In this document: piece after piece, positions 17,867 through 23,043 of the stretch
How positions within the stretch are numbered: position 1 is the first letter of the stretch
Layout of the letters: each line of letters begins with the position of its first letter
From: Scenedesmus sp. PABB004
Taxonomy: Eukaryota
Direction: 5' to 3'
Assembly: GCA_014905635.1 (NCBI GenBank)
Contig: JABVCE010000013.1
Location: 1,054,001-1,118,000 of the forward strand
DNA length: 64,000 nt
The notes under the pieces: generated by a model
What the model was told of the DNA's origin: nothing
The model's database searches: none
Seen by the model: the letters and a program-made list of their open reading frames with translations, nothing else
Position numbers and translations under genes: made by a program

Positions 17867-20800
17867 ATGGCGCGCCGCGCTCTGGCCTGCGCGACGCTGG
17901 TGCTGCTGGCCCTCGTCGCGCCGGCGGCCTGCTCCCGCGCAGCCGCGCTGCTCGCGGAGGACGACGGCCTGCAGAGCCGCCCCCGCACCCTGCAGCAGGA
18001 GGTGGTGATGCGCGGTGCGAAGCGGCGGCGGCGGCCGCGCGGAGCTTCGCCTAGCGCCATGCGTGGCGCGCCAGGCCGCCAGGCCTGCCTGCCAGGCCGC
18101 CCTGACCCAGGGCGCCGCCTGCACGCTCCCAGGATGCTCCACCGACCCCTGCACCGGCCGCCCGGGCACGACGGGGTGCGTCAACCTCGCCAACGGCCGC
18201 TACGCGTGCACCTGCCAGGAGGGGCTCAACTGGGACATGACCATCAAGGCCTGCCTCAGTGAGCGCCGGCGACGGCCAGCCGCGCACGCGGCGGACGCAG
18301 GCTGCGCAGCCGCGGCGGCCGCACTGCCGGCGCCTGACCGCCCCGCTCCCCGTGCCGCCTCGCCTCAGGTCCCAGCATCAACGGCTTCCTGAACCCCTCC
18401 ACGTTCCGGGTCATGCAGGTCTGCCGCTCCGCCGCCTGCCAGGGCTGGGTCGTCGTAGGCGGCCTGTATAACGTCTACAGCCAGCCGGCAAGCAGCGGCA
18501 CGGCGCTGCAGGACTGGACCGTGAACGACCGCGGCAACGGCCAGTTTGCGCTCGAGAGCGCGGGCAGCTGCGTCGACATCTGCTCCGGGCCCGAGTGCGG
18601 CACCCAGCACGGCAACATCATCTTTTACCCGTGCCACTACGGCGCCAACCAGCGCTGGTGCGCGCGTCGCCGCCCTCCTCAGCCGCGGCGCGCCCGCCGC
18701 GCCGCCGGGCACGCAGCCGCTGCGACGACTGCGGATCGCAGCAGCTCACCCTTGTGCGCGCCTCGCCTCGCCCGTGCAGGTACTACGACGGCGAGGCCGA
18801 CCAGTACAGCGGCCGCATGCTGCGCGCGGTCTCGACCGGCCGCTGCCTGACCAGCTGCCCCAAGGCGAATGACTACTGCGCGTTTGCCGGTGACGTCTCG
18901 ACGGCGCCCTGCGACGCGAACGACCCCGCGCAGCGCTGGACCACCGTCGTCAACGGCGGCGCGCCCCCTCCCCCGGAGCCGTCCCCGGCGCCGGAGCCCG
19001 CGCCGGGCCCGCCGCAGTGCTCTGACTCCATTGCCGCGTGCGCGCCCAAGCGCTGCACCGTGCGCACTCTGGACAACCGCGACACCTATGTCTGCCTGCG
19101 CTGCCAGGCGGGGCACCTCGGCATTACCGGCCCCGACGGCTCGAGCATCGTGCAGTGCGGTGAGCGCCCGCCCCGCGCGCCCCGCGCGCCCCGCGCTCAC
19201 CAGCCCTGCGCGCGCGCGCCGCGCGGCCGCCCCCGCCCTCAGACCTTTGCCTCCGCCGCAGTGTGCCGGCCGGGCTTTTACCAGGCGCTGAAGGACGGGA
19301 CCACCAACCAGTACCAGTGCCGCCCCTGCCCGCTCAACAGCTTCTGCCCCGGCTACAACGGCCCGCGCAGCGTCGGGCTCGCCGCCATTCCGTCGATCAA
19401 CACCGGCGAGCTCATCCCCTGCAACCCGCCCCTCTACGACGGCCTCATCACCAAGGCGGAGCGCTCGAGCCGGCGCAGCGACTGCTGGGCGCGCGGCGGC
19501 TTCGTGCTGCCCCAAAAGGCGGGCGACCCTGCGCCGGAGTGCACCAACTCCACCTACTCGCCGGGGCCGTACAACCGCCTGGTCACCTGCGTGCGCTGCC
19601 CGGCGGGCTTTGCGACGCCCGCCAACTACCCCTACCTGCAGGACGACAAGAACAAAGTCTGCCGTGAGTGCCGCGGCGGCTGCTGGCCGCTGCATGCCGG
19701 CTCGCCGCTGCCCCGGCGCCAAGCTCACCACACGCCCACCGCGTGGCGACGCGCCGCCGCGCAGAGCTGCCGCCCGGCCGCTACCTGGACGGCGGGCTCT
19801 CGATCACGTGCCCGGTCGGCACGTACCGCTCCGGCATGGTGCTCGTGACTGACATCAAGGCCATCCAGTGCATGAGCTGCCCCACCGGCTGGACGACGAC
19901 CATCAAGGGCGCGACCTCCGTGCAGGCCTGCAACCGTGAGCGCCGCGCGCGCCGCGGGGCGGCGCTGCTCGCAGCGCGCCACGCGCACGCCGCCGCCGGC
20001 CCACCGCGCCACGCCGCGCCACGCCGCGCCGCACCACGCAGAGCTGCTGCCCGGCTACATGATCGCCGGTTACACGCCCGGCGACCTCACCGCCACGCTG
20101 CCGCTCAACCTGCACGCCGTGGGCGGCCCCGGCAACCCCACCAACGTCAGCTTTTGCCCGATCGGCTTCTTCGGCAACGGCACCACCCTGGCCTGCATCC
20201 GCTGCCCCTCGGCCGCCACCACGCGCGACGTGGGCTCCACGACCGCCGACGACTGCGGTGCGCGCGGCCGCGCGGCGCTGCCCGCCGCCTACCCCGCCGC
20301 GCTCGCGCGCTGCCGCCGCCGCGCCCTGCCGCCGCGGGCCGCCGACCGCGCTGCCGCGCGCTTGCGCAGCGGTCCCGCCCGGCTACTACATCAAGACCGC
20401 GCCCGGCGCGGCGCCGCGGCTCGACAAGTGCGTGACGGACGTCGCGACCGGGCAGGGCTACTACCGCACCGGCTGGGTGGCCGTGTCCGAGGCGAGCGGC
20501 GCCGACAGCGCGGCCGCGTGCACGGCGTGCGGCAAGGACATCCTGGCGGCGCTCGTGGACGTCGACGAGGCCTCTGCCGGCCTCGTGCCGAACGACCCGC
20601 GCCCCGGCTACGTCGCGTCCACGTCCACCGCCTGCTGTGAGCACCGGCGCCGGCGCCCGCCCCGGGCGCGCGCCTCACGCGCGCAGCGCCGCGCCCGCGG
20701 CCGTCGCTGACTCGCCTTGCCGCGCCGCCGGCTCGCCGCCCATGCGCAGACATCCTGCCGGGCTGGGGCATGGGCCTGGACACGTCCCTGTTTGCCAACG

Positions 20801-23043
20801 GCACGTACAACGCGTACATGGCGATCAAGCCCTGCCCCGCCAACATGTATGGCGCGGTCACCACGGTCTACGGCCTCGGCGCAGCGCCGTGCAAGCCCTG
20901 CCCGAGCAACCTGCTCTCGGCGCCGGGCTCGGCGGGCTTCAACGACTGCAAGAACCCCAAGGGCTACAGTTACACCAGCGAGGGCGCCAACCAGTGCCCC
21001 GACAACTCGTACGCGCCCAAGGGCCGCATGGGGCCGTGCCAGCTCTGCCCCGACGGCCGCGTGACCGCGTACGTGCCCGGCAACGGCACCTTCCAGGCCT
21101 CCGTGCGCGACTGCAAGGTCCCGCCCGGGTACGGCGTCTTCTCCAACGACGCGGCGCAGCCCTGGGCGCCGGCCAACGCGGACGCGAGCATGCCCGCTGT
21201 GGCCTGCCCTGCCGGCCTCTACCAGCCCGGAGACAGCGATGCCGGCCAGCCCAGCCGCAACCCCACCTGCCTCCCCTGCCCGCGCGGGCAGTGGTCGTCC
21301 GCCGCCGGCTCGGCCGCCTGCGACGGTGAGCGCCGCGGCCGCGCGCCGCCACGCTGTGCGGTGCTGGCCTCGGGCGCTCGCCGCGCCCTGTCCGGCCGCC
21401 CGCTCACCTCTCTCTGCCTCTCGTCCCTGTTGTTTGTCCGCGCGTCCCGCAGTGTGCGCGCCTGGCTGGGGCATCCCGTCGTCCAAGCCCAACAGCACGA
21501 GCACGAGCGACTGCGCGCCCTGCGAGAGCGGCAAGACGCAGGACGGCAGCAGCCTGTGGTGCTCGGCCTGCCCCTCCACGGCGTTCAACCACCCCGTGGG
21601 TGACAAGTACACGTCCTACGGTGTGACCTTCACCTCCGCGACCGGCGTGGACGGCTGCGTGCCGCGCTACGCGCAGCTGCCGGCGCCCGCCGGCGCGCGC
21701 CTGGCGCTGCCGGACTCGCTCTTTGCCGTCGACGCCGGCGCGGCCGACATGGCGGCCTGCATGGCCGCGTGCGACCCGAGCCAGTGCTGCGTGGTGCAGT
21801 GGGAGGCCGGCGGCGCGGGCACGTGCAAGCGCGCCGAGCTCGCGCCCGTGGGCCCCGCCTACTCTGGCGCGGCGTTCTTCTACAAGCCGCCGCCGAGCCA
21901 GCTCGTGGCCGGCGCGAGCGCCGACAAGGTCACCGCAAAGACGACGCAGCAGACCGGCGCCGGCGCGTTTGCGCGCTGCGCGATGGGCGCGCCCATGGCC
22001 GCGCTCGCGGCGGCGGGCAAGGTCGGCACGCCGCCGGACCGGGCGCTGGTGGAGGCGGTGGACGCGGTGTCGTGGGGCGAGTGCGCCGACGAGGCCGCCT
22101 GCGCCGCCAAGTGCGCCACCAACGCGGCGTGCTGGGGCTGGATCTACGTCCCCGGCAAGGGCTTTGCGCTGCGCGGCGGCGAGGACCAGATCGGCGTGCG
22201 CAGCTGGTTTGCGAGCCCCGACTGGGGCCGCGCCGACCTCAGCCGCGCGCCGGACGCCAAGTGCCCCGCCGGCACGGGCGGCCTGTTCACGTGCGAGCAG
22301 CGCTGCCCCGCCGGCACCTACAACGACGGCACCTTCCGGGACTGCGAGCCCTGCCCTGCCGGCACCAGCTCGGCGGCCGGCGCGCGCGCGCTGGCGGAGT
22401 GTGTCGCCGTCCCCCGGACAAGTGAGTGTGCGCTGCCGCGCGCACGCGCCTGCTGACGTGTGCGCGCCACCCCCCGCGGCGGCCCACGCGCACTCGTCCC
22501 GGCCCGCCCGCTGACCCCGCCGCCCGCCACGCCCGCCGCTGCGCAGCCTGCAACGCCGGCTACGGCGGCGCGCCGGCGTGCACGACGCAGTGCGCGCCCG
22601 GCACGTTCAACAACGGCATGTTTGGCAGCTGCCAGGCCTGCGACGCGGACGAGACCTCACAGGCGGGCGCGAGCTTCTGCACGCCGCTGGCTGCGTCTGG
22701 TGAGCATCTGCGCTGCGGCGTCAGGGCAGCACAGCGGCGGCGCGCGGCGCAGCGCAGCACAGCGCAGCGCAGCGCAGCGCAGCGCGCGCTTTCCCACGCA
22801 CTGCTCTGCCGGCAGCGCTGACGCCCGCCCTGCCCGCCTCGCGCCGCAGTCTGCGACGCTGGTTACGGTGACGCCGCGGGCGCCAAGGAGCCCTGCACGC
22901 TGCACTGCCGCAGCCAGAGCCCGCCCGCCTTCAACGACGGCACCACCGACGCCTGCCGCGCGTGCCCGGCGGGCCAGGAGCCAAACAACAAGGGCACCGC
23001 GTGCGTCGCGCCCAACAGCCAGCTGCCGGGCGCGCAGGGCTGA
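17867..23043 (+). CDS. Secreted Cys-rich modular lectin, copy B (~1300 aa, 12 exons): signal peptide, EGF-like, ricin-B, Pro linker, GCC2/GCC3-like repeats, two PAN/apple-like modules, Cys-rich tail; no transmembrane segment
   Basis: Approximate exons 17867-18014, 18133-18258, 18369-18657, 18780-19159, 19262-19663, 19765-19935, 20042-20257, 20370-20636, 20750-21325, 21453-22421, 22548-22699, 22850-23043. All introns are GT-AG and the exons splice in frame. Ends ...CVAPNSQLPGAQG*. Confidence 0.9.

Follow-up and report, generated by a model that had tools for sequence, protein, structure and literature searches.

Modules bounded by phase-1 introns (class 1-1) are treated as restricted to the Metazoa in the sections of Patthy's review that deal with them, where their predominance in extracellular proteins is called 'mysterious' (PMC8001218). 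Outside the animals, the repeat exons of brown algae have been read, in the portion of that study drawn on here, as the outcome of exon duplication or shuffling that generates binding diversity (PMC11378527). Ephrin_rec_like (GCC2_GCC3) repeats are described in excerpts of another study as having 'emerged in ancient eukaryotes' and as occurring in complement and adhesion proteins (PMC6993872). Here we analyse a gene for a predicted secreted, Cys-rich repeat protein in a 64,000-nucleotide stretch of the genome of the green alga Scenedesmus sp. PABB004 (contig JABVCE010000013.1, positions 1,054,001 to 1,118,000 of the forward strand; hereafter the window). Phase 1 is shared by 10 of its 11 introns, and this pattern is real, is conserved in the gene family and looks more like repeat duplication than like the free swapping of cassettes. 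Among open-access papers and preprints, we found none describing this green-algal family or its intron phases.

The window is nuclear genome DNA of Scenedesmus sp. PABB004, with a G+C content of about 78%; the part of a comparative paper dealing with the strain gives 39.8 Mb, 78.5% GC and 7,092 genes (PMC12571836). The boundaries of the focal gene, read from the sequence, define a spliced open reading frame (ORF) of 3891 nucleotides (nt), encoding 1296 amino acids (aa), and 11 GT-AG introns of 101-150 nt each, which sum to 1286 of the 5177 nt. The spliced product is letter for letter identical to P0001, the NCBI hypothetical protein HT031_004353 of Scenedesmus sp. PABB004. The intron phases are, from 5' to 3', 1,1,2,1,1,1,1,1,1,1,1. 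The length of exons 2 and 5-11 is in every case divisible by three (3n), and these exons are symmetric (1-1); exons 3 and 4 are jointly 669 nt, also 3n. In the features that follow, the paralog is the inverted copy of the gene in the window, strain variants are those seen in metagenome contigs and L001-L004 are homologous metagenome loci, all of them introduced below.

17867..23043, plus strand: complete coding region of the focal gene, in 12 exons, for 1296 aa; predicted secreted EGF-like, ricin-type lectin, Ephrin_rec_like and PAN-like protein
17867..18014, plus strand: exon 1, 148 nt, start codon and hydrophobic signal-peptide-like N-terminus, ending in phase 1; differing from the paralog at 3 third codon positions only
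18015..18132, plus strand: intron 1, 118 nt, phase 1, CTSAC (CT[GC]AC) motif 31 nt from the 3' end; 12 substitutions and indels of 6 and 3 nt relative to the paralog, flanking exons conserved
18133..18258, plus strand: exon 2, 126 nt, 1-1, a single EGF-like module with six Cys; identical to the paralog
18259..18368, plus strand: intron 2, 110 nt, phase 1; 6 substitutions and indels of 8, 4 and 1 nt relative to the paralog; strain indels at 18320, 18323 and 18325
18369..18657, plus strand: exon 3, 289 nt, opening in phase 1 and closing in phase 2, with the initial two thirds of the beta-trefoil lectin (ricin type); 48 of 289 nt different from the paralog, with a net indel of +6 nt, in frame
18658..18779, plus strand: intron 3, 122 nt, phase 2, placed within a QxW motif, whose Trp codon it cuts; relative to the paralog, 21 substitutions and an indel of 1 nt
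18780..19159, plus strand: exon 4, 380 nt, opening in phase 2 and closing in phase 1, with the remaining third of the lectin, the Pro-rich hinge and the first conserved core module
19160..19261, plus strand: intron 4, 102 nt, phase 1; matched in position and phase by L004; indels of -9 and +1 nt between strains; homologous proteins gapless at this point
19262..19663, plus strand: exon 5, 402 nt, 1-1, Cys-rich repeats; 5 of the 6 strain substitutions among those listed are synonymous third-position changes
19664..19764, plus strand: intron 5, 101 nt, phase 1; matched in position and phase by L001 and L004; indels of 2, 1 and 1 nt between strains
19765..19935, plus strand: exon 6, 171 nt, 1-1, exactly one Ephrin_rec_like domain
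19936..20041, plus strand: intron 6, 106 nt, phase 1, in need of splicing because its length shifts the frame; not in L001, L002 or L004; junction gapless in homologous proteins
20042..20257, plus strand: exon 7, 216 nt, 1-1, Ephrin_rec_like repeat finishing at the exon end
20258..20369, plus strand: intron 7, 112 nt, phase 1; not in L001-L004
20370..20636, plus strand: exon 8, 267 nt, 1-1, Cys-rich module without a Pfam match
20637..20749, plus strand: intron 8, 113 nt, phase 1; equal position and phase in L001, L003, L004 and, by eye, L002
20750..21325, plus strand: exon 9, 576 nt, 1-1, several Ephrin_rec_like repeats, with 2 internal repeat boundaries that carry no intron
21326..21452, plus strand: intron 9, 127 nt, phase 1; common to L002 and L003, not in L001; strain indels of 9, 1, 1 and 2 nt
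21453..22421, plus strand: exon 10, 969 nt, 1-1, Cys repeat, 2 PAN/apple-like regions and the first C-terminal unit of about 51 aa
22422..22546, plus strand: intron 10, 125 nt, phase 1; equal position and phase in L003
22547..22699, plus strand: exon 11, 153 nt, 1-1, one C-terminal repeat unit (about 51 aa)
22700..22849, plus strand: intron 11, 150 nt, phase 1, holding a (CAGCG)n run; not in L003
22850..23043, plus strand: exon 12, 194 nt, final repeat unit and stop codon

The 12-exon model is supported by comparative sequence evidence, drawn from the inverted paralog, from metagenome contigs with strain variants, and from homologs in the form of four loci and several proteins. The paralog forms part of a large inverted repeat, composed as follows.

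9492..14695, minus strand: inverted paralog gene, intact, 12 exons, 1298 aa, all GT-AG sites kept, intron positions and phases equal to those of the focal gene
5992..14774, minus strand: left arm of the 8.8-kb inverted repeat
17788..26521, plus strand: right arm, 96.4% identical to 5992-14774
14775..17787, no strand assigned: 3-kb spacer between the head-to-head genes, presumed shared 5' region

Frame-breaking indels between the two copies sit in introns 1-3. The strain variants come from contigs of four metagenome runs, which include fragments from a close strain that retain the introns (DNA-like). Among the variants listed, beyond which there are 33 more substitutions and 2 more indels, 12 of the 12 indels fall in introns (2, 4, 5 and 9), and the 20 exonic substitutions comprise 15 synonymous third-position changes and five non-synonymous ones. 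'Joints' in the contigs were discarded as splice evidence: they are few, have sides of 21-24 letters, lack splice-site ends and amount to noise. All eight core junctions are gapless in the three homologous proteins compared: P0002 from Tetradesmus obliquus, P0003, encoded by a PABB004 paralog on a different contig, and P0004 (1162 aa), which is encoded on a 3705-nt intron-free, transcript-like contig.

In addition, a home-made Viterbi gene finder with held-out training on nine predicted genes outside the repeat arms recovered 11 of the 11 focal introns and predicted no extra ones; one self-trained version placed a false 69-nt in-frame intron in the Pro-rich hinge, and conservative runs were used. 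A CT[GC]AC motif lies 31-50 nt from the 3' end in eight of the 11 introns, a count reached in none of 2000 shuffles (shuffle mean 0.55). Introns 6 and 7 (19936-20041 and 20258-20369), which no homolog locus shares, have the highest GC content (88-89%); CT[GC]AC is absent altogether from these two alone, and they are possibly younger than the other focal introns.

The predicted product would open with a signal peptide, one EGF-like module, a ricin-type (QxW) beta-trefoil lectin and a Pro-rich hinge, continue with a conserved core in which Cys-rich repeats of the Ephrin_rec_like type (GCC2/GCC3, TNFR-like) are accompanied by two PAN/apple-like regions, and end in three Cys repeats of about 51 aa. 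Mean Kyte-Doolittle hydropathy is 2.2 over residues 5-23, with a maximum of 1.36 elsewhere, and a hydropathy scan detected no second transmembrane-like segment beyond the N-terminus; Cys accounts for 92 residues (7.1%). Judging by these sequence features, the protein of about 1300 aa is probably secreted and devoid of a membrane anchor. Ephrin_rec_like (PF07699) scores 75.7 bits over the whole protein (cut-off 23.1), in four stretches, and exon 6 matches the complete profile hidden Markov model (positions 1-48 of 48, E = 1.2e-9) with residues 4-55 of its 56. The lectin is matched by Ricin_B_lectin (PF00652; 35.4 bits, cut-off 29, residues 133-241) and RicinB_lectin_2 (26.8 bits, cut-off 25.6), and contains three QxW motifs (QDW 139, QRW 186 and QRW 239). 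Exon 2 alone yields 20.3 bits for Pfam EGF (PF00008), just below the cut-off of 21.5, and encodes six Cys including a C-x-C. For the PAN/apple families (PF00024, PF14295), exon 10 gives only a PAN_4 match of 16.2 bits against a cut-off of 27; the aligned region exceeds the cut-off for PAN_1 in 12 of the 29 homologs scanned. A phmmer search of the PDB with P0001 returned no matches, and an ESM Atlas search with the focal head no usable match.

The core holds 12 boundaries at which the last Cys of a repeat is followed by P-G-aromatic, and introns are present at eight of these and missing from four. No intron lies inside any core repeat of the focal gene, and the repeats of exons 7, 9 and 10 run to the exon end or stop no more than about 6 residues short of it. 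This layout had been outlined in an earlier note made from the letters of the window, and the splice model bears out its description. The note had counted 10 phase-1 introns out of 11, as obtained here for both the focal gene and the paralog, and had placed them mostly at module ends: all eight core introns fall 0-6 residues after the last Cys of a repeat (six at 0-1 residue and two at 6 residues). The exon ends that it quoted are present (with a slash for the splice site, TGC G/GT at introns 4 and 7, TGC C/GT at intron 5, TGC T/GT at intron 8 and TGC GAC G/GT at intron 9), the exons that follow open with x-x-P-G-aromatic or x-C-x-A-G-Y as stated, and the sole exception is indeed the phase-2 intron in the ricin domain (18658-18779), which splits the Trp codon of a QxW motif.

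The same note had left room for phase 1 being equally dominant genome-wide. At the scale of the window this is not so, and phase 1 is not the local norm. In nearly all genomes phase 0 is in excess, according to passages of one study (PMC3488318), and a 5:3:2 ratio of phases is given in part of another for a set including Chlamydomonas (PMC2834692). If the introns are treated as independent, 10 of 11 in phase 1 has P = 4.7e-5 under this ratio (p = 0.3). The phase bias was also tested against a local background comprising ab initio models and the annotated MLO neighbour, the deposited protein of which was mapped back onto the window.

1860-5489, plus strand: MLO13 neighbour gene, deposited protein P0154, 630 aa, 12 exons, intron phases 0,0,0,0,0,2,2,2,2,0,2

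None of the 11 introns in this neighbour is in phase 1. The ab initio counts for phases 0/1/2 were 53/13/25 for 91 non-focal introns, 16/4/5 in a strict subset of 25 and, with held-out training, 45/14/25 for the 84 introns outside the arms; on the same assumption of independence, the focal 10/11 differs from these 14/84 with a Fisher P = 1.8e-6. Pfam matches on the predicted neighbour exons (abhydrolase, Pre-SET/SET, WD40, PP-loop and MIF4G/MA3) indicate that their frames are sensible.

A phmmer search with the head-less P0004 against 1.84 billion representatives identified 509 family matches at E <= 1e-3 and 64 at E <= 1e-30. Many of them are 800-940 aa long, with the core beginning at about residue 8. 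Of 29 relatives scanned, 25 contain PF07699 and, as mentioned above, 12 contain PAN_1; a ricin, EGF or discoidin domain was detected in none of the 29. Three giant relatives (P0008, P0018 and P0054, of 3305-5039 aa) match the core in 6-9 stretches (nine in P0008, six in P0018), and the whole core can therefore itself be repeated. The deposited 1707-aa model of P0003 is named 'Heat shock 22 kDa protein' and comprises a family member followed by a C-terminal HSP20 domain (1582-1692); it is probably two genes merged by annotation.

Intron positions were compared with four metagenome loci from other algae (L001-L004; 57-67% GC), whose high-scoring segment pairs show identities of about 35-55%; three distant loci (L005-L007, 26-33% identity) were left out of this comparison. 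All 10 introns that could be placed in these loci are in phase 1, nine of them with both splice sites and the L004 equivalent of intron 4 with its donor only; between this donor and about nt 737 of L004, the best join made by script aligned poorly. The homolog introns occupy the focal positions 4 (L004), 5 (L001, L004), 8 (L001-L004), 9 (L002, L003) and 10 (L003), and focal introns are missing at positions 6 (L001, L002, L004), 7 (L001-L004), 9 (L001) and 11 (L003). Since five positions are common to homologs of only about 35-55% identity, the comparison argues that the family has long possessed its phase-1 boundary introns, with differences between lineages.

We consider it fairly probable that the gene arose by tandem duplication of a repeat bounded by phase-1 introns, followed by differential intron loss, and that its head was added by fusion or accretion. 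An ancestral repeat unit with phase-1 borders would have been multiplied by tandem exon duplication within the gene family, and introns would later have been lost differentially, leaving four of the 12 boundaries empty today and other boundaries empty in the homologs. The presence of a phase-1 intron behind the signal peptide means that every added unit stays in frame. The clearest traces of duplication are at the C-terminus, where the unit of exon 11 has 46% identity with the final unit of exon 10 (E = 1e-10) and 35% with that of exon 12 (E = 1.5e-8), and where P0003 and P0004 present several extra units of the same type; both observations accord with the tandem duplication of 1-1 exons. A relationship is also seen between exons 6 and 7 (E = 5e-6).

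The EGF and lectin head would be a lineage-specific N-terminal addition to an otherwise head-less family. The focal gene has a ricin-type head, its T. obliquus ortholog P0002 a different and longer one, and P0003, P0004 and L004 none. The first core module is common to all homologs and in the focal gene is encoded by exon 4 together with the end of the lectin. In the head-less L004 the signal peptide and this module share one uninterrupted exon, so there is no intron where the focal head sits. Fusion or 5' exon accretion would hence be likelier than the insertion of a clean 1-1 cassette. A search with lectin exon 3 against proteins of 168-2000 aa finds only itself. From these sequence comparisons, head turnover is real, and exchange through introns is a candidate only.

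The inverted pair offers a further view of the head. Divergence between the copies is limited to introns 1-3 and the lectin (18043-18891 versus 13640-14520 on the minus strand), and from 18892 to the stop, over 4.1 kb including introns, only five positions differ. Introns 1-3 have a Jukes-Cantor distance of 0.12. Synonymous (dS) and non-synonymous (dN) divergence amount to 0.043 and 0 for the signal peptide and EGF module, to 0.27 and 0.136 for lectin residues 92-250 (dN/dS 0.51), and to 0.004 and 0.0009 for the remaining 1045 codons (dN/dS 0.22). Positive selection on the lectin was considered and rejected, its overall dN/dS of 0.51 not being above 1. The pair is most simply read as an older inverted duplication, homogenised by gene conversion from the middle of exon 4 onward in what looks like a long tract that spares the sugar-binding head; the lectin heads have possibly been kept apart because different sugar specificities are maintained. 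The lectin exons of the paralog gave no Pfam match at E <= 0.001.

Other observations concern the surroundings of the pair. Each arm also contains, towards its outer end (about 6.0-8.9 kb and 23.5-26.5 kb), a second, more diverged duplicated gene without Pfam matches. ARAGORN calls a tRNA-Ala (GGC) at 14451-14523 on the plus strand, within intron 1 of the paralog and on the strand opposite to it, with no call in the focal copy; this is likely a false positive in GC-rich DNA. The 'dispersed repeats' returned by self-BLAST of the window (888-960, 7237-7308, 53399-53469 and 58263-58337) are just (CAG)n runs.

Several points weigh against the duplication account. The background control is thin, consisting of one annotated neighbour with 11 introns and ab initio models, and these models are rough, with an exact match for six of the 11 annotated MLO introns and two phase-1 calls there that are both wrong. 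The seed splice matrices of the finder (donor position weight matrix) derive from the focal gene, and both P values assume an independence of introns that repeat duplication would itself violate. Outside the C-terminal units the similarity between modules is weak (24-35%), and duplication of the more N-terminal modules is proposed because of motif and phase only. Introns 6, 7 and 11 are not common to the homolog loci, so that recurrent gain and differential loss are inseparable here. The Tetradesmus head yields only a sub-threshold F5/8-type-C match (23.0 bits, cut-off 28.2), the scenario for the origin of the head is speculative, and the functional reading given below draws on domain families alone.

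Among the alternatives, the one that fares best is true exon shuffling, in which class 1-1 cassettes (the EGF exon, the lectin block and single Cys repeats) moved between genes via phase-1 introns and can still be skipped or exchanged. We regard it as unlikely. The symmetric 1-1 exons are what it would predict, the EGF-like module occupies exactly one 126-nt exon flanked by phase-1 introns, heads vary among homologs with an equal core (ricin-type, Tetradesmus type or none), and the giant relatives repeat that core. The lectin-core junction, however, falls inside exon 4, and head-less L004 has no intron at the insertion point. Furthermore, head domains of other kinds are found in none of the 29 relatives scanned, the lectin exon matches nothing but itself, and the lectins of the two paralogs are diverged copies rather than swapped ones.

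The corresponding proposals of the earlier note fared unevenly. It had held that modules can be skipped, duplicated or swapped in frame; the arithmetic holds for exons 2 and 5-11 and for exons 3 and 4 taken together, and the C-terminal exons look like duplicates, but no module was found in an unrelated gene by the family and lectin-exon searches. Its view of the EGF exon as an exchangeable 1-1 cassette is right about the single exon between phase-1 introns and has no counterpart among the 29 relatives, none of which has an EGF domain. The two-exon lectin block is not the clean cassette it had suggested, exon 4 also encoding the Pro-rich hinge and the first core module. The note had also proposed a search for paralogs with the same stalk and other cassettes, and homologs with other heads or none do exist; the two paralogs in the window have the same lectin, diverged and not swapped. 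The term 'animal-style' that it had chosen describes the layout correctly; as a mechanism, cassette exchange is a candidate only.

A second alternative, parallel intron gain, would have introns inserted repeatedly and independently at a context that recurs at every repeat boundary, with uniform phase as a by-product. This is an improbable explanation, despite the absence of introns 6, 7 and 11 from homolog loci covering them and the lack in introns 6 and 7 of the CT[GC]AC motif seen in the older, shared introns. The ends of the exons at the eight core introns show no common proto-splice motif such as AG/G, and a Gly codon is split only by intron 1. The five positions common to homologs are, as argued above, old. 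An introner-like origin of the focal introns was also rejected, their mutual matches being only short and GC-rich, with no sign of an introner-like family.

Finally, a wrong gene model in 78% G+C DNA with mostly open frames, or phase 1 as the commonest phase of the genome, is scarcely credible and largely refuted: the six frames of the window do contain 205 ORFs of at least 200 aa, and intron 4 and intron 3 of the paralog are 3n and stop-free, so that tblastn reads through them, but the paralog, homologs, strain variants, held-out finder and branch-point evidence all fit the model, and phase 1 makes up 0/11 MLO and 14/84 ab initio introns.

Duplication of a phase-1-bounded repeat, with later intron loss and an added head, is therefore the reading under which we consider significance. 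The domain families suggest that the product may function as an extracellular glycan-binding protein for adhesion or recognition in the wall or matrix; the portions of a Scenedesmus cell-wall proteome paper considered here mention neither lectin nor ephrin-like proteins (PMC11839794). On its own, the locus is a tidy example and not a new mechanism. A broader proposal, which we put forward tentatively and hold to be doubtful, is that Chlorophycean algae independently evolved the 'animal' way, the family having grown and diversified as phase 1-1 exons were duplicated and recombined downstream of a phase-1 intron that follows the signal peptide, and carrying interchangeable glycan-binding heads. 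If this were true, such a family would have hundreds of secreted Ephrin_rec_like/PAN members (509 matches at E <= 1e-3), its interchangeable heads (ricin-type or Tetradesmus type) would constitute a fast-evolving recognition repertoire, and it would provide a natural replicate for asking why class 1-1 modules dominate extracellular proteins. A conserved phase 1-1 architecture in a predicted secreted protein family of a green alga provides an independent case with which to separate general constraints from animal-specific history. Candidate constraints include linker composition and a phase-1 intron behind the signal peptide that forces added exons to be 1-1.

Compared with the metazoan class 1-1 genes described in sections of Patthy's review (PMC8001218), the focal gene likewise encodes a Cys-rich protein, predicted to be secreted, with modules bounded by phase-1 introns, some of them with one exon per module, and likewise has a phase-1 intron after the predicted signal peptide and 3n exons that keep the frame on duplication or skipping. 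It differs in having introns at only eight of the 12 repeat boundaries and a lectin head whose 3' side is not intron-delimited, and neither the family search nor the lectin-exon search found modules moving between unrelated genes. The core resembles other PF07699 proteins at 75.7 bits, yet it has no kinase, ephrin-binding or fn3 domain and is joined to PAN-like regions and a ricin-type head. This head, a predicted sugar-binding module, resembles R-type (ricin B chain-like) lectins in its PF00652 match and its three QxW motifs, and departs from them in having no toxin A-chain or enzyme partner and in standing at the N-terminus of a long repeat stalk. As portrayed in parts of the study cited above (PMC11378527), the brown-algal ROCO and NB-TPR genes are a further non-metazoan instance of tandem symmetric repeat exons, with a single LRR or TPR encoded by each exon. 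The brown-algal exons are 72 bp long, in phase 2 and encode intracellular LRRs in stramenopiles, whereas the focal exons, of 126-969 nt and in phase 1, encode extracellular Cys-rich repeats in a green alga.

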